Assembly: GCA_963696935.1 (NCBI GenBank)
Contig: CAVOMB010000041.1
Span: forward strand, 9,066-73,065
DNA from: an uncultured Thermoleophilia bacterium
GTDB lineage: Bacteria; Actinomycetota; Thermoleophilia; UBA2241
DNA length: 64,000 bases
Reading direction: 5' to 3'
Below are positions 35,916 through 55,519 of the stretch, in pieces. Made by a program: the position numbers and the translations under genes. The first letter of the stretch is position 1. Every line of letters begins with the position of its first letter. A model generated the notes under the pieces. The model was not told the origin of the DNA. It did not search any database and worked only from the letters and a program-made list of their open reading frames with translations.

Positions 35916-37562
35916 TCAGGTGCGCGTGAGCACGCGCCCGGGCAGCTCGCCGGTGACCTCGCCGTCGTCCAGCACCGGCACGCCGTTGACCACCACGAGG
36001 TCCATCCCCTCGGGCGAGCCGTGCGGGATGTTCTCGAACGGGAACGCGTGCGGGTACAGGTTGGTGGCGCGGTCGTGAACGCGGTCGAGGTCGAAGACGA
36101 CGAGGTCCGCCTTGAGCCCGGGGCGCAGCGCGCCGCGGTCGAACAGGCGGAACCGCTGCGCCGGGAAGGAGGTCATCTTGCGAACGGCCTCCTCGAGGCG
36201 CAGCACCGGCTCTTCGCGCACGTAGCGCTCGAGCACGCCCGGGTACTCCCCGTAGCTGCACGGCCAGTACACGGAGGGGTCGTCCAGCTGCTCCGGCGGC
36301 TGCATGACGAGCCCGTCCGACGAGATCATGGCGATGGGGCTCTGCAGCAGCGCCCGGATGTTCTTCTCCTCGATGTAGTCGAAGAGCCCGATGATGTCGT
36401 CGTCCTCCTCGACGATGAGGTCGAGGAAGGTGTCGAAGGCGTCGGCGCCGCGCCGGGCGGCGATGTCGGCGACGGAGCGGCCGCGCAGCTCCGGGTGGCG
36501 GCCGGCGTGGAACACCACGATGCGCTCGAAGCGGCCGTGCCGCACCAGACCGGCGTAACCGGCGCCGGGCAGCGTGTCCTCCTCGATCTCCCGGCGGAGG
36601 GCCACGCGCGCCTCCGGGTCCGAGAGTAGCGCGATCAGCGCGTCGTGGTCCAGGTCGAGCACCGGCTGCGGCAGCGCCCGCGAGAGACGCGGCGCCAGGT
36701 CGGTGTGCACGTCGTTGTCGGTGGTCACGTCGAGGCCGTCGCGGCGGGCCCGCTCGATGAGACCGAGGTTGGCCGCCGCGTCCTCAGGCGCGCCCCACTT
36801 GGGCGCGTTGTGCGACACCTCCACGGGGCAGCCCGCGGCGCGCCCCAGCTCGAGAGCCTCGGCGACAGCCTGAAGGATGGTCTCGCGCTCGCCGCGCACG
36901 TGCGACGTGTAGATGCCCTGGTGCCGCGCGACCACCCGGCAGAGCCGCAGCAGCTCCTCCGTGCTCGCGAAGCAGCCCGGCGGGTACACCAGACCGCTGG
37001 ACATACCGTGCGCGCCGGCGCGCATGCTGGCGTCCAGCAGCCGCTCCATGCGCGCCAGCTCGCGCTCGGTCACGGCCCGCTCGGCGAAGCCCGCCACGGC
37101 GAGCCGCAGCGCGCCGTGGCCGACGAGCGGCACGAGGTTGATGGCGTGGCCGCCGCGGCGCAGCGCGGCCAGGTACTGGCCGAACGTGCGCCAGTCCCAG
37201 GCCACGTGCTCCAGCCCCCACGCGTAGTGCGCCCAGTTGTGCACCGCGTCCACGCGGTGCTTCTCCGTCAGCGGCGCCGCCGACATGCCGCAGTTGCCGA
37301 TGACCTGCGTGGTGACGCCCTGCCGCACGGCCGTCTCCGCGCGCGGGTGCAGCAGGATGGTCAGGTCCGAGTGCGTGTGCGGGTCGATGAAGCCGGGTGT
37401 GACGTAGCGGTCGGCGGCGTCGACGACGCGCCGGCCGCGCAGCGTGCCCGGCGCGCCGACGGCCGCGATGCGGCCGCCGCGGATGCCGACGTCGCCGCGG
37501 TACCAGGGATTGCCGCAGCCGTCGACGATGCGCCCGTTGGCGACGACCAGGTCGTGGACCAT
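35916..37562 (-). CDS. N-acyl-D-amino-acid deacylase (D-aminoacylase) family amidohydrolase
   Basis: Start at ATG 37562 (MVHDLVVANGRIVDG...), overlapping the upstream TGA. GFIDPHTHSD, GVTTQVIGNCG and IYTSHVRGE motifs. Confidence 0.85.
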   Translation of the reverse strand: MVHDLVVANGRIVDGCGNPWYRGDVGIRGGRIAAVGAPGTLRGRRVVDAADRYVTPGFIDPHTHSDLTILLHPRAETAVRQGVTTQVIGNCGMSAAPLTEKHRVDAVHNWAHYAWGLEHVAWDWRTFGQYLAALRRGGHAINLVPLVGHGALRLAVAGFAERAVTERELARMERLLDASMRAGAHGMSSGLVYPPGCFASTEELLRLCRVVARHQGIYTSHVRGERETILQAVAEALELGRAAGCPVEVSHNAPKWGAPEDAAANLGLIERARRDGLDVTTDNDVHTDLAPRLSRALPQPVLDLDHDALIALLSDPEARVALRREIEEDTLPGAGYAGLVRHGRFERIVVFHAGRHPELRGRSVADIAARRGADAFDTFLDLIVEEDDDIIGLFDYIEEKNIRALLQSPIAMISSDGLVMQPPEQLDDPSVYWPCSYGEYPGVLERYVREEPVLRLEEAVRKMTSFPAQRFRLFDRGALRPGLKADLVVFDLDRVHDRATNLYPHAFPFENIPHGSPEGMDLVVVNGVPVLDDGEVTGELPGRVLTRT

Positions 37563-38665
37563 CAGGCGTCGCCCATCTCGAACACCTGGTACTCGTTCTC
37601 GCAAGGCGGCCCGGCGCACGCGTACATGCGCCGCTCGTCCAAGTCGCAGATGAGGCTGCCGACGGTCATGCCCTGGTCGGCCGGCGGCAGCGCGAGGTCA
37701 GGGTGGCCGCAGATGCAGTCGTCGGGAGACGGGTCATGCACGCGCAGCACGCGGGCGACGAGGTCCACAGGGTCGTCGCCGGCCGCGAGGCCCTGGGCCA
37801 GCATCCGCTCCGCCGTGGCGAGCCGCACCTCCGACTCCCCTCCCCCGTACCCCTCATAGGCCTGCATCGCCGGCGAGACGTAGTGGTTGGAGTGCGCCAT
37901 GAAGCCGGCCGCGGTGTGGTCGGCCAGGTCGAACGCGGTGGCCGAGGTCTCGAGGTCCCACAGCCGGCCGCCGGTGTCGGCGAAGAACTGGTTGGTGCCA
38001 CGGGCGCGGGCGGCCAGCAGGCCCCTGTCCCGCGCCTCCTCGATCGTGCGCGCGTCCAGCGAGGACCGGCGCACGAACACGTTGGGCACGCCGACGCGGT
38101 TGTCGGTGGAGTGCACTGAGTTGCTCACGTTGCCGAGGCCGTGGTTGTTCATGCCGAGCATGAGCAGGTACGGCGCGCCGGCCAGTCCCATGACGCGTGT
38201 GCCGTCCGGGCCGGTGAGGTCGAACAGGACGTTGTTGACGGCGTCGATGACGTACCAGTCCATGTTGTGGCCGACGATGTGCCGGCCTCCGCTGACGACG
38301 GCCACGGCCGTGCAGTGGTCGCCGGAGTGCGGGCTGTGGGCCGGCGCGGGAGCGGTGGGCTCGTCGGCGGTGAATTCCTCACCGCAGTTGAGGACCAGCA
38401 GACGGGAGAACGGCACACCGGAGCCCTCCGCGAGACCCTCGAGCTCCTCCACGTACTGCGGCAGCCAGCGGCGCGCCGCGTCCGCGTAGGCAGGCGCCTG
38501 CCGCTCGGCCTCTTCGAAGGTCAGGCGCCCCTTGGTGAGCGCCGGCAAGTCGGCGCGGAAGAACTCGACGGAGGCCAGTACCTGCTCGCGCGCGGCCTCG
38601 CCGACGGCGCGGCCTAGCTCGCGGTGGGTCCCACTGGCCTGGACGTGGACGAACGGGATCGCCAT
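37562..38665 (-). CDS. peptidase C45 / acyl-CoA:6-aminopenicillanic-acid acyltransferase-family Ntn hydrolase
   Basis: 367 aa. N-terminal propeptide-like region, then the candidate nucleophile in SGDHCTAVAV, followed by GHNMDW. Family call is by pattern recollection. Confidence 0.65.
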   Translation of the reverse strand: MAIPFVHVQASGTHRELGRAVGEAAREQVLASVEFFRADLPALTKGRLTFEEAERQAPAYADAARRWLPQYVEELEGLAEGSGVPFSRLLVLNCGEEFTADEPTAPAPAHSPHSGDHCTAVAVVSGGRHIVGHNMDWYVIDAVNNVLFDLTGPDGTRVMGLAGAPYLLMLGMNNHGLGNVSNSVHSTDNRVGVPNVFVRRSSLDARTIEEARDRGLLAARARGTNQFFADTGGRLWDLETSATAFDLADHTAAGFMAHSNHYVSPAMQAYEGYGGGESEVRLATAERMLAQGLAAGDDPVDLVARVLRVHDPSPDDCICGHPDLALPPADQGMTVGSLICDLDERRMYACAGPPCENEYQVFEMGDA

Positions 38666-38674
38666 GGCCGCAGT

Positions 38675-40150
38675 CTACAGCCCGAGCACGAGGCGCGGGT
38701 CGGGATGGTCGCCGATGCCGAGCTCGGCGGCGCAATGGTCGATGAGTCTGGCGAGCTCGTCCACCACGTCGCCGGGCAGCCCCACCGGCTCGCGGTCGGT
38801 GAACTCCTCGACGCGATCGGCGGCGAGGTCGACGATGCCGGAGCGTCCGGCGGCGAGCCAGTCGCCCATGCCGCCGCGGTAGCTCAGCGAGGGGCTGACG
38901 AACTCCGAGCGGATGTAGCGGCGCGTGTGCTTGGTGCCGAGGAACCCGCGCCCCGAGAGCACCCCGTCCACCATCGCCTCCACGTCGAGCACGTCACGGT
39001 CCCACGGGCGCGGGGCGACCGCGTACAGAGCGTTGTTCAGCACCTCGTCGTCGATGACGAGGACTTCGAGACAGCTGGCGACGCCAGCCTGGATCTCGCC
39101 GATGCCGGAGAGCAGGCGCGGGTGCGGCGACAGCCCCAGCACGGCGTTGACGGCGCGCTCGAACCCGAACTGCGCGTCGACGACCTTGCTGTCGCTGCAC
39201 GGACCGTAGCAGTCGCAGGCAAGGCCGCAGCGCCGCGCCAGCAGCACGGCGGCCACGGAGCCGACGCCGGTCTCCGGCGTGCCGCTGACGACGACGCCGC
39301 TGCGCGGGTCGACGGCGCTCAGACGTGGGCCGTAGTACACCGGCGTGCCCGGCGAGGCCAGCTGCGTGAGGACGACCCCGGCGAGCACCTCGGCGTGCTG
39401 CTGCGCCAACGCCGGCGAGAGCGCCCCGGGCGCCGTGGTGGCGGCGGCGGGGCACGGCAGGATCTCCACCGCCACGCCACCGCGGCGCACCTGCTCCACC
39501 AGCGCGTCGGAGACGTCGCCTCCCAAGATCAGCGGGCTCACCGGCGAGAAGGCGAGGTCGACGGGATAGGTCCCGTCACTGCCGCCCGCGCCGGTGACGG
39601 CCACGGCCATCTCCTGCAGGTACAGCGCCTGGAAGGCGTGCGAGATGCCGGGCCCGCCGATGGCCTTGTCTGTCTCGTGGGCGAGGATGAGGTAGGAGTA
39701 GAGCGGCTCGAGAAGGTCGGGCACGTCCTCGGGCTGCCAGAGCGACGTGACCTGCTGCTGGTGCGCCAGGTGGTGCATCACACGGGTGGCGAGCACCTGG
39801 TCGCGCAGCGTCGCACGACGCCCGGCACCGCTGCGCGGGTCGACCACGTCTCGAGCCCCGCCCAGGTTGTGCACGTAGGTCTGGGCGGGATCGGGATCCA
39901 TGGACAGGGACTTCTCGGGGTCGCGCGCGGCGAGCACGTACTCGCGCGGGCACGCGGCGAGCGCGTCGTCCACGACGGCGCGCGGGATGCTCACGCGCTC
40001 CTGCGCGCCGAGGCTGCAGCCCGCCGCGAGGAAGAGCTCCCGCGCGGCGGGAGACTCGACGCGCACCCCGGCCCGCTCGAGCAGCGTGAGCGCCGCCAGG
40101 TGCATCGCCTCGATTGCTTCGTCGGGCCAGAGTGCAGCGAGCTCGGTCAT
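38675..40150 (-). CDS. MttB-superfamily (trimethylamine methyltransferase-like) protein, non-pyrrolysine type
   Basis: 491 aa uninterrupted ORF with no in-frame TAG. The N-terminal pattern EAMHLAALTLLERAGVRVESPAARELFLAAGC and the overall length are typical of MttB/MtgB-like TIM-barrel methyltransferases. Confidence 0.8.
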   Translation of the reverse strand: MTELAALWPDEAIEAMHLAALTLLERAGVRVESPAARELFLAAGCSLGAQERVSIPRAVVDDALAACPREYVLAARDPEKSLSMDPDPAQTYVHNLGGARDVVDPRSGAGRRATLRDQVLATRVMHHLAHQQQVTSLWQPEDVPDLLEPLYSYLILAHETDKAIGGPGISHAFQALYLQEMAVAVTGAGGSDGTYPVDLAFSPVSPLILGGDVSDALVEQVRRGGVAVEILPCPAAATTAPGALSPALAQQHAEVLAGVVLTQLASPGTPVYYGPRLSAVDPRSGVVVSGTPETGVGSVAAVLLARRCGLACDCYGPCSDSKVVDAQFGFERAVNAVLGLSPHPRLLSGIGEIQAGVASCLEVLVIDDEVLNNALYAVAPRPWDRDVLDVEAMVDGVLSGRGFLGTKHTRRYIRSEFVSPSLSYRGGMGDWLAAGRSGIVDLAADRVEEFTDREPVGLPGDVVDELARLIDHCAAELGIGDHPDPRLVLGL

Positions 40151-40184
40151 GCGTGTCTCCTCCTCGTGGCGCGGGATGCGCCGG

Positions 40185-42047
40185 TCATGCGTCTTCCGTG
40201 GTCTTCGGGCGGCGCCTCAGCACCGCGAACCCTACGGCCGCGATGGCGATACCTCCGGCCACCAGGCCCCACACCCAGGCCCTGGAGGCCGGCGGTACAG
40301 GCCGCGCGGCCTGCAACGGCCGCAGGGAGATGTACGTGGAGCGCAACTGGTTCCAGAACGGCGACCCGTCCCCGCCCGGCGCCAGTACGTAGCCGGCCCA
40401 CCGGTCCGTGCGGAAGGCCTGCAGGTTCACGTTGTACCAGAGCACGACGTACGGGTCGTCGCGGTACAGGAGCTTCTGCATGGCGACGATCAGGTCCCTG
40501 CGGTGCGCGGTGTCCGTCGGGTCCGCCGGGTCGACCGCCTGCGACTGCAGCGTGTACAGGCGGTCGTACACCGGGTCCGAGTACTGGCTGTCGCTCCAGC
40601 TCATGATCTGCCGGGTGGTGAAGGTGCTCAGGATGAAGCCGGGGTCGACGTCGCCGCCCCAGCTCCAGACGAACAGGTCGTAGTCGGCGTCGTCGTAGAT
40701 GCGGTCGCTGAAATCGGCCTCGCTCATGACCTGCAGGTGCAGGGCGATGCCCACGTCGCGGCACCAGCCCACGATCATGCGCGCCGCCTCCTGGTCCGCA
40801 GGGTACTCGGTGAGCGCCGCCAAGCGGAACGAGAGCTTGCGGCCGGCGGCGTCCTCGCGGATGCCGTCGGCGTCACGGTCGCTGTACCCGGCGTCCTCCA
40901 GTATCTGCTTGGCGCGCTGGGGGTCGTAGGAGTACCGCGCGTTCTCGGGGACCTCCCAGTACCAGTCGCCCTGCGCCGGAGAGACGACCGAACCGCCGGG
41001 CACCGCCAGGCCGGCCATGGCACTGGCCACGATCTTGTCGTCGTCGATGGCCCAGTGGACGGCGCGGCGGATGGAGGCGTCGCGGAGCAGCGGGTCGCCC
41101 TTGCTCCGCGGGCTCTGCCAGCAGTTGAACCCCAGCTCGTGGAACCCGATGGCCGGTGAGGCGACCGTGCTGGAGCCGGCCACCTCCGCGTAGGCGGGCT
41201 GCATGGTGGCCGGGAAGTCGGTCACCGCGTCGAGCCTGCCGGCCCGGTAGTCCTCGAGCAGCGCCTGGGCGTCGCGCCCGACCTCGAACGTGAGCCGTGT
41301 GACGGTGGGCGGGCCGCCCAGCGCCTGCGGGTACACGGGATTGGGCTCCAGCGTGACGTCACGCCCGGCCTGGAGCCCGGTCACCCGGAACGGCCCCGAC
41401 CCGACGAACGGCAGGTTGGAGTACTCAGCCAGACGGTCGGGGTCCACCTTGCTCCAGATGTGCTCCGGCAGGATCGGGATGGCGATGGCCAGCATGTCGG
41501 CCTTGGGGCGCCGGGTGGTGATCACCACGGTGGCGTCGTCCGGCGCCTGCACGTCCTTCACGCCCGAGAGATACTGGATGTAGGCGGGCTGGTGCGTCTT
41601 CAGCACGAGGTCGTAGGTGAAGACGACGTCCCGCGCGGTGAGCGGCACCCCGTCCTGCCACTCCATGCCGTCGCGCAGGTGGAAGGTCCAAGCGAGGCCG
41701 TCTTCAGAGGGCTCCCAGCTCGTGGCTATGTCCGGAGCGGGCCGGTAGTCGGCGTCGTACCAGGTGAGGAAGTCGTAGCCGAGGCGGAAGCACTCCCACG
41801 ACACGGCGCTCCAGGAGCGGAAGGGATTGACCCCGTCGCAGTCCTGCGACGTGCCGATGCTGTAGGCGAGCGGGCCCGACGCCGGCGACGCGGCGGCGTC
41901 CGGAGAGGACGCCGCGGCCGGGAGCGCCGCCGCGAGGCACAGGACGGCCGCGACCAGTAGCGTCGGCGCGGCCGCGGCCCACGCGAGGCGCCGGCGGCTC
42001 CGCGCCGCCGCCCCGTCGTTGCGTGTCGTCTCCCGGTGGTTTCGCAT
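40185..42047 (-). CDS. ABC transporter substrate-binding protein, family 5 (peptide/nickel type), with N-terminal RR-containing signal and C-terminal TM anchor
   Basis: 620 aa. SRRRLAWAAAAPTLLVAAVLCLAAAL signal, SBP_bac_5 core (ATSWEPSEDGLAWTFHLRDGMEWQDG), and C-terminal WVWGLVAGGIAIAAVGFAVLRRRPK. Confidence 0.88.
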   Translation of the reverse strand: MRNHRETTRNDGAAARSRRRLAWAAAAPTLLVAAVLCLAAALPAAASSPDAAASPASGPLAYSIGTSQDCDGVNPFRSWSAVSWECFRLGYDFLTWYDADYRPAPDIATSWEPSEDGLAWTFHLRDGMEWQDGVPLTARDVVFTYDLVLKTHQPAYIQYLSGVKDVQAPDDATVVITTRRPKADMLAIAIPILPEHIWSKVDPDRLAEYSNLPFVGSGPFRVTGLQAGRDVTLEPNPVYPQALGGPPTVTRLTFEVGRDAQALLEDYRAGRLDAVTDFPATMQPAYAEVAGSSTVASPAIGFHELGFNCWQSPRSKGDPLLRDASIRRAVHWAIDDDKIVASAMAGLAVPGGSVVSPAQGDWYWEVPENARYSYDPQRAKQILEDAGYSDRDADGIREDAAGRKLSFRLAALTEYPADQEAARMIVGWCRDVGIALHLQVMSEADFSDRIYDDADYDLFVWSWGGDVDPGFILSTFTTRQIMSWSDSQYSDPVYDRLYTLQSQAVDPADPTDTAHRRDLIVAMQKLLYRDDPYVVLWYNVNLQAFRTDRWAGYVLAPGGDGSPFWNQLRSTYISLRPLQAARPVPPASRAWVWGLVAGGIAIAAVGFAVLRRRPKTTEDA

Positions 42048-42117
42048 AGGCCGAACGCGGGCCGACCGGGGCGGCGCAGGCGCCTCACGGCGCCGCCGCC
42101 CCGGCCGGCCCTCTCCG

Positions 42118-43158
42118 CTAGTTGTTGATCCGCAGACAGGCGGCGTAGTGGTCGCCGCGGATGTGGACGTCTTCGGGGTCGGTCTCTTTACAGGCGTCGA
42201 TCGCCTCGGGGCAGCGCGGGTGGAACCGGCAACCCGTCGGGATGTCCACGGGGTTGGGCGTCTCTCCCTTGAGGATGACGTGCTCGCGCTTGGCCAGCGG
42301 ATCCGGCACCGGGATGACGCTGATGAGCGCCTTGGTGTAGGGATGCTGCGGGTTGGCCACGACCTCTTCGGTCTCGCCGATCTCGACGATGCGCCCGAGG
42401 TACATCACGGCGATGCGGTCGCTGATCACCCACGCCAGCGAGAGGTCGTGCGTGATGAAGATGTACGTGACCCCGAGCTTCTCCTTCTCCTCCACCATCA
42501 GCTTGAGGATGTCGTTGCGGATGGAGACGTCGAGGGAGGCGACCGGCTCGTCGGCGACGATCACGTCCGGGTCGAGCACGGTGGCGCCGGCGATGCACAC
42601 GCGTTGCCGCTGCCCGCCCGAGAGCTCGTGCGGGTAGCGGTACAGGTACTCCGTCGCCGGCCTGAGGCCCGCCTCGTTGATGGCGGTGATGACCCGGTCT
42701 TCCTTCTCCCGCTCGCTCGAGGTGATGTTGTTGACCTCGAGCGGCTCGGCGACGATGTCGAAGATCGTCTGCTTGGGATTGATGGAGTTGTACGGGTCCT
42801 GGAAGATGATCTGCGCCTTCTTGCGGTACTCGCGCAGCTCCTTGCCGCTGAACTTCCGGACCGGCTTGCCCTTGTAGATGATCTCGCCGCCGGTGGCGTC
42901 TTCCAGGCGCAGGAGGGTGCGGCCGGTCGTCGTCTTGCCGCACCCCGACTCCCCGACCAGCGCGAGGATCTCACCCTTCATGATCTGGAAGGTGATGTGG
43001 TCGACCGCCTTCACGAACTTCTTCTCGGTGGCGACCATGCTTTTGAAGAAGCCTTGCTGGATCGGGAAGTACACCTCGAGGTCCTTGATGTCGAAGAGCA
43101 CCTCGCCGGCCTCGGGCGCGAGCTTGAGGTCCGGACGGTCGGTCTGCTCCGTGGCCAT
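42118..43158 (-). CDS. oligopeptide/dipeptide ABC transporter ATP-binding protein (OppF/DppF-like)
   Basis: Start at ATG 43158. Walker [10 protein letters not shown], signature LSGGQRQR, and the C-terminal oligo_HPY motif NPQHPYTKAL. Confidence 0.92.
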   Translation of the reverse strand: MATEQTDRPDLKLAPEAGEVLFDIKDLEVYFPIQQGFFKSMVATEKKFVKAVDHITFQIMKGEILALVGESGCGKTTTGRTLLRLEDATGGEIIYKGKPVRKFSGKELREYRKKAQIIFQDPYNSINPKQTIFDIVAEPLEVNNITSSEREKEDRVITAINEAGLRPATEYLYRYPHELSGGQRQRVCIAGATVLDPDVIVADEPVASLDVSIRNDILKLMVEEKEKLGVTYIFITHDLSLAWVISDRIAVMYLGRIVEIGETEEVVANPQHPYTKALISVIPVPDPLAKREHVILKGETPNPVDIPTGCRFHPRCPEAIDACKETDPEDVHIRGDHYAACLRINN

Positions 43159-43160
43159 CG

Positions 43161-44243
43161 TCACACCTCCACCGGTTCGGGGGTGGGCTCGTCGTCCGGC
43201 GCGACCACGGCACCGGCCATGCGCTTCGCGAGGAGGCAGCGCACGAAGTGACCCGGCTCGACCTCGGTGAGGCCCGGGTGGTCCGTCCTGCAGCTCTCGA
43301 TCCGCACGTCGCATCGCGGCTCGAACGCGCAGCCCGGCGGCGGGCTGATGAGGTTGGGCGGGTCGCCCTTGATCGAGCTCACCATCTCGCGCTTCTCGTG
43401 GATGTTGGGGAACGCCTTGATCAGTTGGCGCGTGTAGGGGTGCGTCGCGTTGTTGAAGATGTCGGCGGTGGTGCCGCTCTCCACGACCTCGCCGGCGTAC
43501 ATGACGACGCCCTTGTCGCAGGTCTCCGCCATGACCGAGAGGTCGTGGCTGATGAGGATGAAGGAGAGGTCGAGCTCCTTGCGCAGGCGCCCGATGAGCT
43601 CCAGGATCTGCGCCTGCACCATCACGTCGAGCGCCGTCGTCGGCTCGTCGCCGATGACCAGCTTGGGGTTGCACGCCAGCGCCATGGCGATCATGGCGCG
43701 CTGGCGCATGCCTCCCGACAGCTGGTGCGGGAAGTCCATGACCCGCTTGGGGTTGATGCCCACGAGGTCGAAGAGCTCCCGCGCGCGCACCATGGCCTGC
43801 TTCTCGCTGAGGCCCTCGTGCAGGCGGATGGGCTCGGCGATCTGCTTGCCGGTCTCCTGGACCGGGTTCAGAGCGTTCATCGCCCCCTGGAAGATGATGC
43901 TGATCTCCTTCCAGCGGATCTTGCTCATGCCGTACTCGGTGCGCTTGGCGAGGTTCCTGCCGTCGAAGAGGACGTCGCCGCTGACGATGCGGCCGTTCTC
44001 CGGCAGGAGCTTGAGCAGGCTCAGGGCCGCCGTCGTCTTGCCGCAGCCGGACTCGCCGGCGAGGCCGAGGCTCTCGCCGGGCTTGAGCGTGAAGCTCACG
44101 TCCTGCACGGCCTTGACGTCGCCGACGCCGAGCTTGAAGTAGGTGGTGAGCCCGCGGACGTCGAGCAGGCCTTCGTGCTCGATCCGTTCCACGGCCTTCT
44201 TCTCGGAGGCGGGCTTCGCTTTGGTGGCTGACCTGGCCATCAC
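43161..44243 (-). CDS. oligopeptide/dipeptide ABC transporter ATP-binding protein (OppD/DppD-like)
   Basis: 360 aa. [17 protein letters not shown] and THPYTRQL. Confidence 0.92.
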
Positions 44244-45814
44244 TCGCCCCCCTGCTCGTCGTCCTCTATGTGGCCGCCTACCCAGCCCCCGCCGCCCTCA
44301 GGATGGATGGAGCCGCCGGCCGGCTGGTTGAAGTCGGGCATGGCGTCGTCGGTCTGCTGACCCGGCGTGAACAAGCCGGCGCTGCCGCCCACGCCACCGC
44401 CGCCGGCCACGGCCACCTGCGGCTCACCGCGGGCCGTGAAGCGGCTCTCGCCGGTGCTGTCCTCGCGCTTGCGCAGCTTGGGATCGAGCACCTCGTCGTA
44501 GGCCGTGCCGATGAACGTGAACGCGAGCACCACCAGGATGATGGCGATGCCCGGCGGGAGCAGGTACCACCACGCGGGCAGGCCGGCGGCACCGTTGACC
44601 CACGCGTTGTGCAGCATGGTGCCCCAGCTGAAGTTGAGCGGGTCGCCGAGCCCCAGGAACGACAGGGTCGTCTCCGAGAGGATCGCGATGGCGACCACGA
44701 GCACCAGGTTGGCGAAGATCAGCGGCATCACGTTGGGCAGCACGTGCTTGCTCATGATGTGCCCGTTCTTGGAGCCGATGGCCCTGGCCCGCTCGATGAA
44801 GCTGAGCTCGCGCACGCGCAGGACGTCCGAGCGGACCACGCGCGCCGTACCCGGCCAGCTGGTGATACCGATGATGACGATGATGAGCCAGAAGTTCTGA
44901 CCCCAGGCCGCGACCAGCACCATGGCGAGCGGCAGCCAGGGGATGACCAGGAACGCGTCTGTTAACCGCATCCACGCTTCGCCTTGCCACCCCCCGTAGA
45001 AGCCTGCGGCGATGCCGATGCCGGCGCCGAGGACGGTGGCCATGAGGGCTGCGAGCAGCCCAACCAGCAGCGAGATGCGCGCGCTCCAGATGAACTCCGC
45101 GAGCACGCTCTGGCCCACCTGGTCGGTGCCGAACCAGTTGTAGTAGTACGCGGTCGGCGGGTGATACGGGCCGTAGAGCTCGCCCGTCGCGGGGTCCTTG
45201 ATCTGAGCATTGGGATCGAGCAGCGCGTGGTCGGCGAGGAACGGCGCCAGCAGAGCCATGGCCAGGAACACGATGAGGATGCCGAGGCCGATGATGCCCT
45301 GCATGTTGCCGCGGTACAGCCGCCACACCTGATGCGTGTTCCAGGTGGTGAGTTCCGCGCGCTCGGGGTTGCCGGCGGCCCAGAAGTACACGGTGACGCC
45401 GCCGAGCAGGATGGCCACCGTCTGGACGGCCCAGTTGTAGGTGATCACGTTCTCGCCGGCGGACCAGCCGCCGAACCCGCCGCCGGCGAGCACGGCCCAC
45501 ACGACGAACAGGGCGCCCTCGACCAGCAGGAGCACATTGAAGGTCACAGCCTTGCTGCGGCGCACCAGGCCGATGACGCCGGCGGCGAAGCAGCAGATGG
45601 CAAGGAGGATCATGACCCACGGCGGGTAGGCGCCGACGGTCTCGGCGAAGAACCCCTTGATCACCGCACGGAAGCCGCTGGTGATCGGGACGGTCTTTGG
45701 ATACGTGAGCAACTCGAGGACGATCCAGAGCATGATCGTCCAGAAGACGACCCAGTTGCGGAAGCGACGGGGCACGAGCGGTGCTGCGGCGTGGTCCTTG
45801 CCTTGCCCGTTCAT
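44240..45814 (-). CDS. ABC transporter permease (OppC/DppC-like) with ~160-aa extra N-terminal 4-TM module and Gly-rich C-terminal tail
   Basis: 524 aa. The canonical core starts near WRLYRGNMQGIIGLGIL and contains an EAA-like loop (IERARAIGSKNGHIMSKHVLPN). The N-terminus has four hydrophobic segments. Confidence 0.88.
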   Translation of the reverse strand: MNGQGKDHAAAPLVPRRFRNWVVFWTIMLWIVLELLTYPKTVPITSGFRAVIKGFFAETVGAYPPWVMILLAICCFAAGVIGLVRRSKAVTFNVLLLVEGALFVVWAVLAGGGFGGWSAGENVITYNWAVQTVAILLGGVTVYFWAAGNPERAELTTWNTHQVWRLYRGNMQGIIGLGILIVFLAMALLAPFLADHALLDPNAQIKDPATGELYGPYHPPTAYYYNWFGTDQVGQSVLAEFIWSARISLLVGLLAALMATVLGAGIGIAAGFYGGWQGEAWMRLTDAFLVIPWLPLAMVLVAAWGQNFWLIIVIIGITSWPGTARVVRSDVLRVRELSFIERARAIGSKNGHIMSKHVLPNVMPLIFANLVLVVAIAILSETTLSFLGLGDPLNFSWGTMLHNAWVNGAAGLPAWWYLLPPGIAIILVVLAFTFIGTAYDEVLDPKLRKREDSTGESRFTARGEPQVAVAGGGGVGGSAGLFTPGQQTDDAMPDFNQPAGGSIHPEGGGGWVGGHIEDDEQGGE

Positions 45815-46800
45815 GCCTGCACCCTTGGGTCGAGGTAGTAGTACATGATGTCGGCGATGAGGTTGGCGACGATCACCGCGACGCTGGCGATGAGGAACAC
45901 GGCCTGCATCACGGGGTAGTCGCGCTTCTGCATCGAGTCGTAGGACAGCAAGCCCAGACCCGGCCAGTTGAAGACGCTCTCCGCGAGGATCGCGCCCGAC
46001 ATCACGAACCCGAGGTTCATCATCACGATGGTCACCGTGGGCAGCATCGCGTTGGGCACCACGTGCCGCCAGAGGACCGAGTTCTCACTCAGGCCCTTGG
46101 CGCGGGCGGTGAGTGCGAAATCCTCCTTCATCACGCCGGTGATGGAGCTGCGCATGATGAGGTGGTACTCGCCGACGTAGGCGACGGCGAACGTGAACGC
46201 CGGCAGGAACAGGTGCTTCATCAGCGACTGGAAGGCGGCGAAGCCGCTGAGCTCCACCCCCGGCTCTTCCATGCGCCCGGTGGGGAACCAGCGGAGCTTG
46301 GTCGCGAACAGCATGATCATCAGGAGGCCGAACCAGAAGGTAGGCATGGCGTACAACACCATGCCTAAGTTGGTACTCACAACATCGTAAGTGCCGTTGC
46401 GTCTCCACCCCGCGAAGACGCCGGTGATCATACCTATGATGGTGGCAAAGACCGTGCCCACCCCCACGAGTAGGATGGTGGGCCAGATGCGCTCTGCGAC
46501 GACCTCGGTGACGGGGCGCTTCTCGGAGAACGACATGCCGAACTTGCCCTGGATGGTGTCGCGCCAGTAGTAGAGGAACTGGACCTGCAGAGGCTTGTCG
46601 AGGTTGAACGTCTTGCGCTGGCGCTCGATGACCGACGGGTCCGTCTTCCCTTTGGGGAGCAGGAGCCTGGCCGGGTCGCCCGGGAGGATGCGGAAGAGCG
46701 CGAAGTTGAACGAGGCCACGAGGACGACCGTGAGGACCGCGTTCAGGATCTTCCGGATGAAGTACCTGCGTTTGTCCACGTCACTGCGGGCCCCCCTCAC
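45811..46800 (-). CDS. ABC transporter permease (OppB/DppB-like)
   Basis: 329 aa. YFIRKILNAVLTVVLVASFNFALFRILPGDP is the typical OppB N-terminus. The true start may be the internal GTG (VDKRRY...) about 21 nt downstream. Confidence 0.9.
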   Translation of the reverse strand: MRGARSDVDKRRYFIRKILNAVLTVVLVASFNFALFRILPGDPARLLLPKGKTDPSVIERQRKTFNLDKPLQVQFLYYWRDTIQGKFGMSFSEKRPVTEVVAERIWPTILLVGVGTVFATIIGMITGVFAGWRRNGTYDVVSTNLGMVLYAMPTFWFGLLMIMLFATKLRWFPTGRMEEPGVELSGFAAFQSLMKHLFLPAFTFAVAYVGEYHLIMRSSITGVMKEDFALTARAKGLSENSVLWRHVVPNAMLPTVTIVMMNLGFVMSGAILAESVFNWPGLGLLSYDSMQKRDYPVMQAVFLIASVAVIVANLIADIMYYYLDPRVQA

Positions 46801-47003
46801 TCCCCTCGGAGCGCTGCGGACCCTTACCCCCTTCTCACATCCGTGGTTGCCGGACCCCTGATGACACTCGAAATGCCGTACCAGATAGACGGCTCTGGAG
46901 AGAGCCTCGTGTGGTTAGACGGAAGCCTCTCCCGGTTCCGTCGGGTGAGTGCCTCAGAATATGCGCGCCGGGGAGGCGCGGCAAGGCGAGCGGTGCGGGT
47001 GGG

Positions 47004-48116
47004 TCAGACCCCGGGCAGCCGCGCCTCGCGGCCGGCGCGCCGCAGCGACTCCACGAGCCGGTCGAGCGGCAGCTCATAGGCGGTGTTGCCGTCGCGGCCC
47101 ACCGTGGTCGTGGCGGCCGTGAGGGCGTTGCAGACGCTCTCGGCCGTGGCGTCCACCGCGGCCTCGAAGAGCTCGAACATCTGGTCGTTGGTCACGGCCG
47201 CGAGGGTGAAGAGCTCGTCCGCCTTGCGCGGCAGCCGAAAGGCGGTGGAGAACGCGACCATGATCTCGCCGCTGCCGTCGGACGCGTAGGAGCCCGTCGC
47301 GGCCAGCCCCAGGGAGCAGCGCTTGGCCATGCGCTCGCACTGGCGGGCGGTGAGCGGCGCGTCCGTGGCCAGTACCACGATGCACGACCCCTCCCTGTTC
47401 TCCAGCGGCATGAGGTCGGGTATGTCGCGGCCCACGGGGACGCCGTCCACACTCAGGCGGTGGCGCACGCCGAAGTTGGTGAGCGCCAGCACCCCGACCG
47501 TCCACTGGGCACCGTGCGCCGTGGCCACCCGGGACGAGGTGCCGATGCCGGCCTTGAAGTCGAAGCACGACATGCCGGCGCCGGCCCCGACGCAGCCTTC
47601 GGCCACGGGGCCGGCCTCCGCGGAGTCGAGCGCCGCGCGGACGTGCTCCTCGCGCACGTGCATGCCGCGCAGGTCGTTGAGGAACCCGTCGTCGCACTCG
47701 CCGACCACGGGCATCACGGCGTCCTCGATGCCGGCGGACGGCTCCCGGTCGAGCACCCAGCGCACGGTCGCGTCGTACACGGCGCCGGCGCTCTGCGAGT
47801 TGGTGAGCAGGATGGGTGTCTCGATGAGGCCCCACTCACGGATGGCGCTGATGCCGATGACCTCGCCGACGCCGTTGGCGGCGTGGGCGCCGGCGACGAC
47901 ACGCTGGCGCCAGAGGTCGCCGGAGTGCGGGAAGATGGCGGTGACGCCCGTGCGGGCGGGCCCGCTGCCGGAAGGCAGCTCGGGCCCGCCCCACGAGACG
48001 GTGCTGTGGCCGACGCGCACGCCGGGCACGTCGGTGATCGCGTTGAGCGATCCGGCCGGCAGCCTGCCGACGGCGACGCCGAGGTCGCGCAGGCGACAGC
48101 GCTCCGGCGCGGTCAT
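47004..48116 (-). CDS. DmpA/BapA-type (peptidase S58, P1) L-aminopeptidase/D-esterase-family Ntn hydrolase
   Basis: 370 aa. ITDVPGVRVGH...TGVTAI...GECDDGFLND...GSCIVVLATDAPL, where the self-cleavage G/S-type site is expected. Confidence 0.8.
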   Translation of the reverse strand: MTAPERCRLRDLGVAVGRLPAGSLNAITDVPGVRVGHSTVSWGGPELPSGSGPARTGVTAIFPHSGDLWRQRVVAGAHAANGVGEVIGISAIREWGLIETPILLTNSQSAGAVYDATVRWVLDREPSAGIEDAVMPVVGECDDGFLNDLRGMHVREEHVRAALDSAEAGPVAEGCVGAGAGMSCFDFKAGIGTSSRVATAHGAQWTVGVLALTNFGVRHRLSVDGVPVGRDIPDLMPLENREGSCIVVLATDAPLTARQCERMAKRCSLGLAATGSYASDGSGEIMVAFSTAFRLPRKADELFTLAAVTNDQMFELFEAAVDATAESVCNALTAATTTVGRDGNTAYELPLDRLVESLRRAGREARLPGV

Positions 48117-48123
48117 GGTCCTG

Positions 48124-48942
48124 TTACTCCAGGATGCCGGCGCGGTGGGCCTTGAGGTATGCGCCGCAGAAGTTGTCCTCGCCGCGGAGCGCCTCGACCG
48201 ACTTGATGGTCGCCATCATCTGCTTGTTGCGCACGTCGACGATGAGGCCGTCGAGGCCGAGGCCGGCGCACATGGCCACGAAGGTGCGGTTGAGCAGGCC
48301 GCGGTTCGGCAGGCCGAAGCTCACGTTGCTGAGACCGCCGGTGGTGCGGGACGGCAGACGGTCCTTGACCAGCTTGAGCGTCTCCATGGTGACGCCCGGA
48401 GCGGACGGATCGGCGGACACGGCCATGACCAGCGGGTCGACCCAGAGGTCCTCAGCCGGAAGGCCGGCGCCGGTGCACAGGTCGAAGATCTTCTGCGCGA
48501 CGGCAAAGCGGTCCTCGGCGGTCGGCGGGATGCCCTCGTCGCTCAGGCAGAGGCCGACGACCGGGCACTTGTGCTTCTCCACCAGCGGGAGCACGGCGTC
48601 GATGCGCGGCTGCTCACCGGAGATCGAGTTGATGAACGGCACCTTGCCGCCCTTGTCGATGATGGCCTGTACCCCGGCGTCGAGCGCCTTGGGGTTGGCC
48701 GAGTCGACCATGAGCTGCATGTCGGTGACGCCCATGACGACCTCGATGAGCCACAAGAGGTCCTCGACCTCGTTGCCGCCGGCGACGCCGCCGTTGACAT
48801 CGAGAAGACCGGCGCCGGCGTCGATCTGGTCCTGCGCCAAGGCCTTGATGAACTCCACGTCACGCGCCTGGATCGCCTCGGCGACCGCCTTGCGCGTCCC
48901 GTTGATCGATTCACCCATCAACAGCATCTCAACAACCTCCAC
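48124..48942 (-). CDS. pterin-binding methyltetrahydrofolate:corrinoid methyltransferase (MeTr/MtgA/MtqA-like)
   Basis: 272 aa. LLMGESINGTRKAVAEAIQARDVEFIKALAQDQIDAGAGLLDVNGG is the classic Pterin_bind N-terminus. ATG 48927 is the likelier start, with GGAGG 8 nt upstream. Confidence 0.85.
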   Translation of the reverse strand: MEVVEMLLMGESINGTRKAVAEAIQARDVEFIKALAQDQIDAGAGLLDVNGGVAGGNEVEDLLWLIEVVMGVTDMQLMVDSANPKALDAGVQAIIDKGGKVPFINSISGEQPRIDAVLPLVEKHKCPVVGLCLSDEGIPPTAEDRFAVAQKIFDLCTGAGLPAEDLWVDPLVMAVSADPSAPGVTMETLKLVKDRLPSRTTGGLSNVSFGLPNRGLLNRTFVAMCAGLGLDGLIVDVRNKQMMATIKSVEALRGEDNFCGAYLKAHRAGILE

Positions 48943-49063: not shown

Positions 49064-49309
49064 TCAGACGCCGTCGGGCGGCGGGACGATCCAAGCCGGC
49101 GGGCGGCGGCGGCGGTCCTCGCGGCGGCGCTCGCGGGCCCGCGGCCCGCCCTCGCGGCGGCGCTCCTCTACCCGGCGGTCGATCCTGACCTCGACGTCGT
49201 CTCGCCCGCTGAAGAGCGCGGCGAAGTGCTCGTAGAGCCGCTCGCGCTGCGGCCCGGTCACGAAGAGCACGTGCTCGGCATGTACGGTTTTCACGCTCTC
49301 GTTCACCAC
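49064..49309 (-). CDS. hypothetical small protein with Arg-rich C-terminal tail
   Basis: 81 aa: MVNESVKTVHAEHVLFVTGPQRERLYEHFAALFSGRDDVEVRIDRRVEERRRE.... It sits in operon context between ALDH and MeTr. No family named with confidence. Confidence 0.4.
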   Translation of the reverse strand: MVNESVKTVHAEHVLFVTGPQRERLYEHFAALFSGRDDVEVRIDRRVEERRREGGPRARERRREDRRRRPPAWIVPPPDGV

Positions 49310-49378: not shown

Positions 49379-50821
49379 TCAGGCGTAGGTGATGTACACC
49401 GTCTTGATGCGCGTGTAGAAGTCGCGCGCGGCCGGGCCCTGCTCCTTGAACGTGTTGGCGCTGGACTGTTTGAAGCCGCCGAACGGCGCCTGCAGGGCGA
49501 GGCCGGTGGTCGGCTCGTTGACCTTGACCACGCCGGCCTCGATGCGGTCGACGAACGTCAGCGCCCGGCGCAGGTCGTTGGTGACGACGCTGGCGGCGAG
49601 GCCGTAGCCGACGGCGTTGGCCTTGAAGATGGCGTCGTCGAGGTCCCGGGCGCGGATGATGCCGACCACTGGGCCGAAGATCTCCTCCTGAGCCAGACGG
49701 CTGTGGACCTCGACACTGTCGAAGACCGTGGGGCGCAGGAAGTGGCCGGCGTTCGCGGCGCGGCCGCCGCCGGCCAGCAGCTCCGCCCCCTCCTCGCGGC
49801 CGATGCGCACGTAGTCGAGGTCGGTCTCGAGCTGGTCCGCGCTGACGGCCGGACCCATCTGCACACCCTCCTCGAGGCCGTCGCCGATGTTGAGCGCGTC
49901 GGCGGCCTCGGCGAGAGCGTCGGCGAAGCGGTCGGCGATGCCCTCCTCGACGATCACCCGGCTCGTGGCCGTGCAGCTCTGCCCGGTGAGCCCGAAACCG
50001 CCCATGACCGCCAGCCGGACGGCCAGCCGCAGGTCTGCGTCGTCGAGGACGATGGTCGGGTTCTTGCCGCCCATCTCGAGCTGCACGCGCGCGAAGTGCT
50101 CCGCGGCGCGCGCGTAGATCCGCGACCCGGTGTCGCGCGACCCCGTGAAGGTGAGGCCCTGCACCACGGGGTCGCCGGAGAACGCCGCACCCACGACGGA
50201 GCCCGGGCCGGTGACCAGGTTGAGCACCCCGGCCGGCAGACCGGCGTCGACGAGACACTCCACCAGGCGCAGTGCCGTGAGCGGCGTGTCGCTGGCCGGT
50301 TTGAAGACGACGGTGTCGCCGTAGGCGAGCGCCGGGGCGATCTTCCAGGCGGGGATGGCGATGGGGAAGTTCCACGGCGTGATGGCGGCGACGACCCCGA
50401 GCGGCTCGCGGCGGCTGAACAGCATGCCGTCCGGGGCGTTGGGCGGCAGGACGTCGCCGCCCATGCGCCAGCCCTCACCGCCGAAGTACCGCAGGATGTC
50501 GCGCGCGCGGACGACCTCGCCGGTGGCCTCGGCGAGAGTCTTGCCCTCCTCGCGCGTGAGCGTGCGCGCCACCTCGTCGAGACGCTCGGTGAGCAACTCC
50601 GCGGCCTTGAAGAGGATGGCGCCGCGGTTCGGCGCCGGCGTGAGCCGCCAGGCGGGGGACGCCTCGGCCGCCGCGGCAGCGGCCTGAGCCGCGTCGGCGG
50701 CGGTCGCGCTCGGGAACACGGCGAGGACCTCGTCCGGGGCGGCCGGGTTCCTCGTCTCGAAGCTGGCGTGGTCGCTGGAGCCGACCCACTCGCCGCCGAT
50801 CAGATTCTTGCACGTCTCCAT
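49379..50821 (-). CDS. NAD(P)+-dependent aldehyde dehydrogenase
   Basis: 480 aa. ITPWNFP, FTGS, catalytic ELGG-equivalent LEMGGKNP, and Cys in GQSCTA. Confidence 0.92.
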
Positions 50822-50876: not shown

Positions 50877-51704
50877 TTACGCCTCCGGCAGCGGGACGAG
50901 CACGCGATCCGAGAGGCGAAGCGTCTCGCGATACCCCGCCTCCCGGGCGTGGCCGATGGCCTCGCCCCAGGCGCGCGCCACGTGCTCAACCTCGTGCGCG
51001 TCCGAGTCGATGGTCAGAGGGATGCCGCGCGCGCGAGCGCCGTGCAGTATCTCGAGCGACGGGTACATGACGCCGGCCGCGTCGGTGAAGCGGTCCGTGT
51101 TCAGCTCGATGGCGGCGCCGCAGGCCGCGAGCGCGTCCAGCGCCGCGTCGATCTCCGGCAGGACCGCCGCACCAGGCCGGTGCCCCCACAGGCCGATGTA
51201 GTCCATGTGCGCGAGGATGTCGAAGCGCCCCCACTCGGCCGCCCGCCGAACGGTGCGGTAGTAGGCGGCCAGCAAGGCGTCCGGGTCGTCCCAACGAGGG
51301 TCCTTGCGCAGAGCCGGGTCGTCGAAGATGAACCCGTCCACTTCGTGCACTCCGAGGACGACGACCTCGAACGGCCAGGCGGCGAGCAGTTCCTCGAGTT
51401 GCTGCTCCTGGCCGGCCACGTACTCGGCTTCCAGCCCGAGGAGCACCTTCACGTCGTCGTGACGCGCCGCCACGGCGTGCACCTCGTCCAGGTACTCGCC
51501 GAGCCGCTCCGGCCGCAGCCACCAGTCCTCGCCCAGGCCCGGCGCCGGCGTTACGTGCTCGGCGACGGCGATCTCGGGCAGGCCGAGCTCGGCGGCCCGG
51601 CGGGCGACGTCCTCGACGCTGCCCCTGCCGTCCGACCACTCCGTGTGGATGTGGTAGTCGCCGGGCGTGACCAGGCGAGCGGCGTCCGGCCTGGGCGCGG
51701 TCAT
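50877..51704 (-). CDS. PHP-domain (histidinol-phosphatase-like) metal-dependent phosphoesterase
   Basis: Start at ATG 51704, overlapping the upstream stop (ATGA): MTAPRPDAARLVTPGDYHIHTEWSDG...AEHV...LAHMDY...IDSDAH. Confidence 0.8.
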   Translation of the reverse strand: MTAPRPDAARLVTPGDYHIHTEWSDGRGSVEDVARRAAELGLPEIAVAEHVTPAPGLGEDWWLRPERLGEYLDEVHAVAARHDDVKVLLGLEAEYVAGQEQQLEELLAAWPFEVVVLGVHEVDGFIFDDPALRKDPRWDDPDALLAAYYRTVRRAAEWGRFDILAHMDYIGLWGHRPGAAVLPEIDAALDALAACGAAIELNTDRFTDAAGVMYPSLEILHGARARGIPLTIDSDAHEVEHVARAWGEAIGHAREAGYRETLRLSDRVLVPLPEA

Positions 51705-53026
51705 TCCTCGACCTCGCGCCCGCTCCCGCGCCGCTTGAGAAGCACGACGACGAACGATCCGCCGATCAGGACGACGACGCCGATCACCACCCAGGCCGTC
51801 GTCGACAGCCCGCCGCTCTCTGCCGCCGCGGTCGCTGCTACCTTGGGCCTCACGGTCAGGTAGCTCTGGCGGTCGATCATGTTGGCCCACACGCTGCCGC
51901 CCACGTAAGGCTGCCAGCCCTCCCACCGTGATGTGTTCACAGCCTGCAGCACGGAGGGGTAGTCGATCACGATCATGGGCTGCTCCGCGTACATGACGGC
52001 CTGGCCCTACTTGAGCAGTTCCATGCACTTCGCGGTGTCCATCTCGCGGTACTGCTCCTCCGTGAGCTTGTCGTACTGCGCGTTCGACCAGTTCATCTCG
52101 TTGTAGTTCTCGATCTGGTCGGTGGTGAAGCAGGCCGCGGAGTCGCCCGGGTCGATGTAGCCCATGAAGTCCCAGAGCGCGAGGTCGTAGTCGGGCGCGT
52201 ACGTGTCGCCCTTGTAGTTCCAGATGGCGTCGCCCAGCGCGCCCTCGTCGACCACGGAGAGCTTGACGTCGTCGTTGGTGTAGTACTGGAAGATGACCTC
52301 GTCGATGCTGGGCTGCTTGCCCCAGTAGGAGGGGTCGCGGACCATCTTCACGTAGTCGTCCTTCTTGAACTCCACGGTCTGGAACGGCCCCGAGCCGACG
52401 ATCGGCGTGGGGTTGCGGAACGTGGTGTTCAGCTGGCTGGGAGTCAGCTTGCCCCAGATGTGCTCGGGCAGGACGTAGATGTAGATCTGCGTCGTGAGCA
52501 TGTTGGCCTTGGGCTGCGTGCAGCACACCTTGAGCGTGGTGTCGTCGACGGCGACGGCCTTCTTCACGCCCTTGAGGTAGACGGAGGTGCTCAGATCGTC
52601 CCTGAGGATGGTGTTGAACGTCCAGGCCGCGTCGGCGGCGGTGAGCGGCTGGCCGTCCTGCCACTTCACGCCGGGCCGGATCTTGAACGTCCACTTCTTC
52701 TGGTCCGGCGAGAGCGACCAGTCCTCCGCGAGGCCGGTCTCCTTGGACGGGAGCCCGTCGGCGCCGATGCCGACCAGCGTGTCGTAGTTGAGCATCCAGA
52801 TCTCATAGGACGTGCTGTAGCCGACGAAGGGGTTGAGGTTGAGCGGCCCCTCGTTCCAGCCCAGCCGCAGGGTGACCTTGCCGGAGGCGGGCGTCGCCGC
52901 CGGCGAGGACGTGGCGGCGAAGACCGTCGCTACACAGGCGGCCAGGAGTGTGAGCAGGACGATGACGGTGATGGTGAGTGTGACGACGCCCTGCCGTCCG
53001 CGCCGGCCGGTGTCTCGTCTGTTCAT
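51701..53026 (-). pseudogene. second family-5 substrate-binding protein with C-terminal TM anchor, interrupted by an in-frame TAG at 52007..52009
   Basis: ORF 52007..53047(-) and ORF 51701..51994(-) are in the same frame and separated only by TAG: ...DTAKCMELLK-TAG-GQAVMYAEQPMIVIDYPSVLQAV.... The alignment to the first SBP (RRDLIVAMQKLLYRDDPYVVLWYNVNLQAF) is collinear across the stop. Start at ATG 53026 (MNRRDTGRR...). Confidence 0.8.
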
Positions 53027-53091
53027 GGTGGGTCCCCAATGTACCACTGGTCGGCGCCGGCCGGGTCGGCCGCGGCGCCGCGGACTCGCGC

Positions 53092-53565: not shown

Positions 53566-55209
<1,644 letters not shown>

Positions 55210-55222
55210 TCAGCCTCCCTTC

Positions 55223-55519
55223 CTATTTCTCGACTACGGCCAGGATCTCGCTGGCGCGCAGAATCAGCAGTTCGTCACCGTCGGCGGTCTTGTACTCGGT
55301 GCCCGCGTACTTGCCGTAGATGACCTTGTCGCCTTTCTTGACGTCCATGGGAACGCGCTTCTTGCCGTCCTCGTCCCACTTGCCGTCTCCGGCGGCGACG
55401 ACCTCACCCATCATCGGCTTCTCTTTCGCCGTGTCGGGGAGAACGATGCCGCTGGCAGTCTTCTCCTCTTCCTGGACCGCCTTGATGATGACGCGGTCTT
55501 CGAGCGGCTTGAGCTTCAT
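55223..55519 (-). CDS. groES: co-chaperonin GroES
   Basis: 98 aa. [13 protein letters not shown]...[12 protein letters not shown]. Confidence 0.97.

Follow-up and report, generated by a model that had tools for sequence, protein, structure and literature searches.

The stretch of DNA analysed in this study, hereafter the window (64,000 nucleotides, G000:C41:9066-73065), lies inside contig C41 (79,781 bp) of a metagenome-assembled genome (MAG) of an uncultured Thermoleophilia bacterium. On its minus strand it harbors one gene for an MttB-family methyltransferase (MT1, 38675-40150) and one for a methylcorrinoid:tetrahydrofolate methyltransferase of the MeTr/MtgA/MtqA type (MT2, 48124-48942), with no gene for a corrinoid carrier protein beside them. 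Our analysis indicates that this gene cluster is likely a substrate-specific spoke in a distributed network of cobalamin-dependent methyl transfer, the host being an anaerobic Thermoleophilia bacterium with a Wood-Ljungdahl pathway. The absence of a carrier gene is no puzzle, being the layout of a shared hub viewed from one of its spokes, an arrangement already known from other bacteria. The MAG comprises 3.04 Mb in 115 contigs, is 82.6% complete, and has a G+C content of about 69%; real genes were chosen by their third-position G+C and then by family matches. Its nearest public relatives are uncultured Thermoleophilia (Actinomycetota) of soils, lake sediments, and digesters.

An earlier note on this DNA had described an MttB-family gene and a MeTr-like gene on the same strand of one cluster, and family profiles confirmed both, namely an MT1 of 491 amino acids (aa; PF06253, 213 bits against a cut-off of 25) and an MT2 of 272 aa (PF00809, 71.5 bits). 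Its observation that neither a corrinoid protein nor a RamA-type activase is encoded beside the cluster was borne out as well. Six-frame whole-genome profile searches for the B12-binding domains PF02310 and PF02607 resulted in zero matches on the whole of C41, and the search for PF14574 (RACo/RamA) gave none on this contig. In a second corrinoid search, a hidden Markov model (HMM) trained on eight corrinoid proteins of this genome likewise had no hit in the window or elsewhere on C41, while it recovered the positive control on contig C56 with 4e-94. A B12-binding domain hidden in one of the encoded proteins, which the earlier note had left to a sensitive HMM search, was detected neither in the window nor on C41. 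The gene order aldehyde dehydrogenase, small open reading frame (ORF), MT2, S58 peptidase, OppBCDF importer, binding protein, MttB, C45 hydrolase, amidohydrolase, and PucR regulator recurs in about 45 of 53 loci of other Thermoleophilia species (MttB identity of 71-94%). In none of these c. 45 orthologous loci was either a corrinoid protein or a RamA gene seen at a distance of up to about 10 kb, and 66 related loci (1.16 Mb) were likewise devoid of B12-binding domains. Since the order is kept without carrier or activase in c. 45 loci, the absence is real and conserved and no accident of assembly.

That a carrier gene beside the cluster was simply missed, be it through an assembly break, a very divergent B12-binding domain, or the small ORF, is extremely improbable. 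The genome is indeed a fragmented MAG, but MttB is flanked by about 30 kb or more of C41 sequence on each side, and several orthologous loci of the same order come from contigs of 0.3-2 Mb. The small ORF between the aldehyde dehydrogenase gene and MT2 (49064-49309, minus strand, 81 aa) displays an Arg-rich tail (DRR..ERRRE..RERRREDRRRR), is 50-73% conserved in about 23 orthologous loci, and belongs to no recognized family. As a hidden carrier it was rejected, being Arg-rich, absent from the small genomes of relatives, and without a match to Pfam, NCBIfam, or the corrinoid HMM; it may not be a real gene at all. An MttB without a neighboring carrier is the rule in this genome: of the 32 places with an MttB-family gene, only 12 have a corrinoid gene within 8 kb, whereas for about 20 none was present at this distance or on the same contig, several of these being flanked on either side by more than 10 kb.

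The first of three explanations offered by the earlier note, a carrier encoded elsewhere, is well supported. The genome-wide search it had recommended for B12-binding proteins, a RamA-like activase, and cobalamin genes found all of them outside C41, with corrinoid proteins, RamA, and B12 riboswitches located on other contigs. In total, 18 B12-binding and 12 B12-binding_2 matches were detected, about ten of which represent small two-domain corrinoid proteins, together with a single RamA-type activase on C56 and an additional RACo inside the acs cluster. Two tandem cobalamin riboswitches (C50:18027-18717; 87 and 90 bits) are situated upstream of CobS (C50 20717-21445) and CbiB (C50 22563-23363). 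Within the genus, all 49 sampled genomes harbored B12-binding_2 matches, ranging from 2 to 28 per genome. The acs cluster on contig C107 (L070:4811-15247) encodes CODH, ACS, both CFeSP subunits, RACo, a CooC-like ATPase, and AcsE, a complete-looking carbonyl branch of the Wood-Ljungdahl pathway, which by its gene content marks the lineage as a putative anaerobe able to use methyltetrahydrofolate (methyl-THF).

On the MT1 side, the genome contains 27 near-full-length MttB paralogues besides fragments. Three of them (C56:55156-56577, C14:6895-8307, and C111:16437-17891), the genuine MttBs of the pyrrolysine type, display an in-frame TAG exactly at the pyrrolysine column, and a tRNA-Pyl (CUA) was identified at G000:C53:15560-15632 (L071:7561-7633). 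An in-frame TGA, which could encode selenocysteine, occurs in two more paralogues (C56:52228-53676 and C100:19692-21167), and a tRNA-Sec (UCA) is located at G000:C100:12240-12337. With pyrrolysine, about 27 MttB paralogues, and the Wood-Ljungdahl pathway, these Thermoleophilia look like anaerobic methylotrophs, which bears on the turnover of methylated nitrogen in soils and sediments.

MT2 matched NF005719 ('methyl-THF:corrinoid/Fe-S protein methyltransferase') with 284 bits against a cut-off of 259. Its nearest solved relatives are the O-demethylase MT2 of Desulfitobacterium hafniense (4o0q, 2.5e-45) and MeTr (2e7f, 3e-44), followed by the folate domains of MetH (about 1e-26). The stretches DS.NP, INS.S, DPLV, and GLSN.SFG, which presumably have a role in pterin binding, agree with 4o0q in the alignment. 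Three pterin-binding genes were found in the genome, namely FolP, the window MT2, and AcsE on C107, so that the window carries the only MT2 outside the acs cluster. The FolP-type dihydropteroate synthase itself is encoded about 27 kb from MT2 (20155-20877, minus strand; Pterin_bind, 293 bits), and this distance stays between 10 and 28 kb across the genus. Exactly one MT2-type match, always near FolP, was present in 23 of the 26 genus genomes of at least 88% completeness, and none had two; FolP is likewise missing from two of the other three, suggesting that a region was not assembled there. No orthologue of this MttB exists in three small genomes (1.7-2.5 Mb, 98-100% complete), of which L072 and L073 show the order groES-groEL-MT2-PucR, while L074 keeps groES-groEL-MT2 with no PucR match. 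Judged by this order, a module of about 10 kb (S58, Opp, MttB, C45, amidohydrolase) sits between the conserved MT2 and its PucR neighbor. Based on these comparisons, MT2 is probably not a private partner of this MttB and is common to all MttB paralogues. The notion of the earlier note that the MeTr-like gene is the dedicated partner of MttB could not be upheld, since this MT2 is single-copy in the genus and keeps its position without MttB. Conversely, the large MttB islands of the genome and the genus, including the one on C56, lack an MT2, and the window carries the one that is missing there.

Enzymes of the MT2 family are known to use a methylated corrinoid protein as substrate. As its second explanation, the earlier note had considered that the two enzymes work without the usual relay. 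In such a case, MttB might methylate free cob(I)amide or hand the methyl group directly to MT2. What speaks for this is the linkage of MT1 and MT2 without a carrier gene in about 45 species, but MT2 occupies the same position in genomes without this MttB and is the sole MT2 for about 27 MttB paralogues, so that the linkage calls for no special mechanism. In addition, several corrinoid proteins were found in every genome examined, our literature search retrieved no corrinoid-protein-independent member of the MttB family, and the related MtyB is unable to methylate free cobalamin (PMC8604678). We therefore consider a relay without carrier very unlikely. The shared hub already explains the conserved absence, and beyond it neither a relay without carrier nor a missed carrier gene nor a changed job of MttB has positive support.

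The MttB of the window is a divergent member of its family. The PF06253 match covers residues 7-477 on profile positions 33-499 of 500, while TIGR02369 (MttB proper) yielded 244 bits and thus stays under its cut-off of 525. Identity to the other 26 paralogues of the genome is 32% at most, and orthologues were detected in a single GTDB genus, where they occur in 41 of 48 genomes, as against none of 32 genomes from the remaining families of the class. Among 1.84 billion representatives searched, only about nine full-length clusters exceeded 33% identity. The only match outside the phylum, L059 (labelled Chloroflexota), is uninformative, its neighbors being genes for a histidine kinase and a polysaccharide deacetylase. 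The motif ACDCYGP is invariant in the orthologues. An AlphaFold2 (AF2) model (pLDDT 94.2, pTM 0.92) displays the TIM-barrel fold with C-terminal extension of MttB and MtgB. Foldseek aligned it with 7xcl, 9yce, 2qne, and 4yyc (Sinorhizobium meliloti) at template modelling (TM) scores of 0.87-0.91 and root-mean-square deviations of 2.2-2.4 over about 475-481 columns. Of 59 columns at least 75% conserved in the 26 paralogues, 47 are kept, and the stretch SD.K...D.Q.G.E after the pocket strand is retained. In the MttB-MttC complex of Methanosarcina barkeri, the backbone N-H of MttB G110-T111 bonds the corrin ring (PMC9842639), and this pair aligns with G97-G98 here. The ratio of non-synonymous to synonymous substitution rates (dN/dS) of 0.10-0.22 against five orthologues indicates purifying selection. 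Taken together, the predicted intact fold, the 47 columns, the corrin-contact Gly-X, and the dN/dS values argue for a working member of the MttB superfamily.

The pocket, in turn, differs. In MtgB, glycine betaine is bound by Y97, R312, H348, and F356 (PMC13080624); these align with G98, D313, S348, and G356, so that all four are replaced. The offset of this alignment was checked on R312, H348, and F356, while the Y97 column lies beside a gap and is less certain. Since R312 binds the substrate carboxylate and is reportedly conserved in MtcB, MtpB, MthB, and MtyB (PMC13080624), its replacement by Asp makes one of the known carboxylate betaines an unlikely substrate. D313 belongs to a D/N-x-Y-G motif common to the wider clade. 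Pyrrolysine is not found at the Pyl334 column, which holds Cys318 here and Thr or Asp in some orthologues. A zinc site of the MtaB type formed by C312-D313-C314/C318 was also considered and rejected: the wider clade keeps only D313 and Y315, C318 varies between Cys, Thr, and Asp even among orthologues, and the model places 312-315 in a barrel strand, so that residues 312 and 314 should face away from the pocket.

The third explanation of the earlier note, a different chemistry of the MttB homologue, thus stood in part. The pocket differs from MtgB at all four positions, while fold, core, and corrin-contact Gly-X are retained, and the structural modelling that the note had proposed supported the intact fold. 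Taken further, the homologue might have changed its job and act as a non-methyltransferase enzyme or non-catalytic subunit in a D-peptide or amide operon, with MT2 unrelated to it. The loss of the betaine-binding residues, the column without pyrrolysine, the identity of at most 32% to any paralogue, and the position of MT2 independent of MttB would all agree with this. The 47 of 59 superfamily columns including SD.K...D.Q.G.E, the full-length fold matches at TM scores of about 0.9, and the purifying selection speak against it, and an altered pocket is expected for a new substrate, the aromatic pair of the MtgB pocket being likewise not conserved among MtcB, MtpB, MthB, and MtyB (PMC13080624). 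On balance, a change of job appears unlikely, and the protein is probably an MT1 of the distributed network.

The genes around MT1 and MT2 all lie on the minus strand, from 55519 down to 34163, and the spacing of neighbors, anything from 4-base overlaps to gaps of about 200 bases, is consistent with one or two operons. The run begins with groES-groEL (53566-55519; Cpn10 and Cpn60), the conserved upstream anchor of MT2. A truncated family-5 binding protein (52007-53047), which matches only positions 5-174 of the 368 of its Pfam profile, is followed by a separate ORF of 97 aa; the whole region (51701-53047) is probably a broken second binding-protein gene. Next come a PHP phosphatase (50877 to about 51662) and, upstream of MT2, an aldehyde dehydrogenase (49379-50821; PF00171, 548 bits), which scores under every NCBIfam equivalog cut-off and is kept by synteny in many orthologous loci. 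Starting 7 bases downstream of MT2, a peptidase S58 of the DmpA/BapA type (D- or beta-aminopeptidase; 47004-48116; PF03576, 380 bits) has as solved relatives the D-aminopeptidase 2drh (1e-94), DmpA (1b65), and BapA (3n2w). The adjoining Opp/Dpp-type ATP-binding cassette (ABC) importer OppBCDF (42118-46800; ABC_tran with oligo_HPY, BPD_transp_1, OppC_N) consists of the permeases OppB (45811-46800) and OppC (44240-45814) and the ATPases OppD (43161-44243) and OppF (42118 to about 43170), whose genes overlap one another by 4 bases. It is followed by a family-5 ABC substrate-binding protein of the peptide/nickel/opine type (40185-42047; PF00496, 261 bits), for which the solved relatives are distant and generic family-5 proteins (best AppA, 3e-29) and give no clue to the ligand. 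Located 9 bases downstream of MttB is a C45-family autoproteolytic N-terminal nucleophile (Ntn) acyltransferase/hydrolase (37562-38665; NF040521, 177 bits against a cut-off of 85; PF03417) with the solved relative 2x1d (isopenicillin-N acyltransferase). A D-aminoacylase-like amidohydrolase (Amidohydro_3, 35916-37619; PF07969) resembles the D-aminoacylases 1m7j and 1rjp (2e-73) and the N-acyl-D-glutamate deacylase 3gip, and a PucR-family transcription regulator (34163-35800; PF07905, PF17853, PF13556) closes the run. About 800 bases downstream of the PucR stop, on the opposite strand and near the D-amino-acid-type hydrolases, lies a gene of the class-A beta-lactamase family (32365-33390, plus strand; Beta-lactamase2, 201 bits).

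MttB is thus surrounded by a peptide-type importer and three amide-cleaving enzymes. A sister subfamily (44-54% identity, L075-L084), whose wider genomic contexts were taken from genus genomes, occurs in many of these, each copy next to a different transporter, be it Opp with a family-5 binding protein, an MFS, or an APC permease. Such contexts agree with every MT1 having a transporter of its own, and again no carrier gene was found beside the sister paralogues in the genus genomes. One sister copy (L081) adjoins a 1380-aa BadF/BcrA-type activase fusion.

In the proposed scheme, the family-5 binding protein and OppBCDF would import a peptide-like methylated nitrogen compound, from which the S58 aminopeptidase, the C45 hydrolase, and the D-aminoacylase-like enzyme would free a methylated amine. 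MttB as MT1 would then move one methyl group to the Co(I) of a carrier from another locus, with about ten candidates in the genome, and the RamA-type activase on C56 would keep this carrier active. Finally, MT2 (48124-48942) would transfer the methyl group to tetrahydrofolate and thereby feed the acs/CODH pathway on C107. We infer the partner corrinoid protein, the substrate, and the order of the reactions from this gene content.

Several points weigh against this scheme. Since MT2 is kept in place in genomes without MttB, the adjacency of the two genes may be positional rather than functional. Counts of genes are lower bounds, as the MAG is 82.6% complete, and a second MT2 could be unassembled, though the genus survey argues otherwise. 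No partner carrier could be assigned by orthology: the smallest relative (G032), by which we attempted to name a conserved hub carrier, has two corrinoid proteins, but both are at most 49% identical to those of this genome, with no obvious conserved one. A peptide-like or amide-linked methylated amine as substrate is a tentative best guess, with the gene neighborhood as its sole basis, and our literature search found no paper linking MttB with a D-aminopeptidase. Where such a substrate is combined with a true two-enzyme relay, so that an MttB of the Asp313/Tyr315 type and MT2 would process a non-betaine, peptide-derived N-methyl amine via free cobamide or direct hand-over, the proposal becomes highly improbable. 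If true, the MttB superfamily would thereby gain its first branch that is independent of corrinoid proteins.

As a spoke of the network, the MttB of the window would be a new MT1 of an already known type of system, and its small, divergent, genus-restricted, and uncharacterised subfamily sets it apart by sequence. New here are the single-copy status and positional conservation of MT2, its recognition as the component absent from the C56 island, and the mapping of the pocket onto the 2026 active-site work on MtgB. The Asp at the Arg position, the peptide importer, and the D-stereospecific-looking amidases together point to a substrate class not yet described for the MttB family.

The distributed layout compares well with that of Eubacterium limosum, where one carrier, MtqC, receives methyl groups from MtpB, MtcB, and MtyB and is demethylated by MtqA and reactivated by RamQ. 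The genes for the MT1 enzymes, mtqC, and mtqA/ramQ are located in separate clusters there, and expression of each MT1 is presumably induced by the respective substrate (PMC8604678). As there, many MT1 paralogues, fewer carriers, one MT2, and one activase are encoded apart, and methyl-THF feeds the Wood-Ljungdahl pathway of an anaerobe. In contrast to E. limosum, MT2 lies here in a strand-run with one MT1, next to groESL and PucR and not next to activase or methyl-THF oxidation genes. The MT1 of the window also differs in carrying Asp at the carboxylate-binding Arg312 of the betaine enzymes and in its location among a peptide-type importer and three amidases, and the host is an actinobacterium. 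Ruegeria pomeroyi likewise has its genes for MtgB, MtgC, MtgD, and RamA scattered around the chromosome, with a shared carrier and a shared pterin-binding methyltransferase (PMC12478193). This corresponds to the dispersed genes of the present genome, where carrier and MT2 are probably shared, though R. pomeroyi is an aerobe, its shared components also serve as a split methionine synthase, and its substrate is glycine betaine (PMC12478193).

With regard to individual components, the MtgB-MtgC-MtgA system of D. hafniense (2qne, 9yce) shares the fold of MT1 (TM score of 0.91, about 26% identity), the same MT2 family (4o0q from the same species), and the same three-component logic. It differs in its cognate carrier MtgC, as no corrinoid gene lies at our locus and none of the four betaine residues is kept. 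The best structural match was M. barkeri MttB-MttC (7xcl, 7xcn; TM score of 0.89), whose corrin-contact Gly-X and C-terminal extension are present here, whereas pyrrolysine is missing from the window protein (Cys318 at this column) and Tyr364 of the archaeal enzyme aligns with Ser348. Measured against three-component systems, the carrier is not encoded with MT1 and MT2, and carriers, activase, and cobamide supply are present in the genome. Measured against a hub-and-spoke layout, the genome displays 27 MT1, about ten carriers, and one MT2 outside the acs cluster, with most MT1 genes located far from the carriers.

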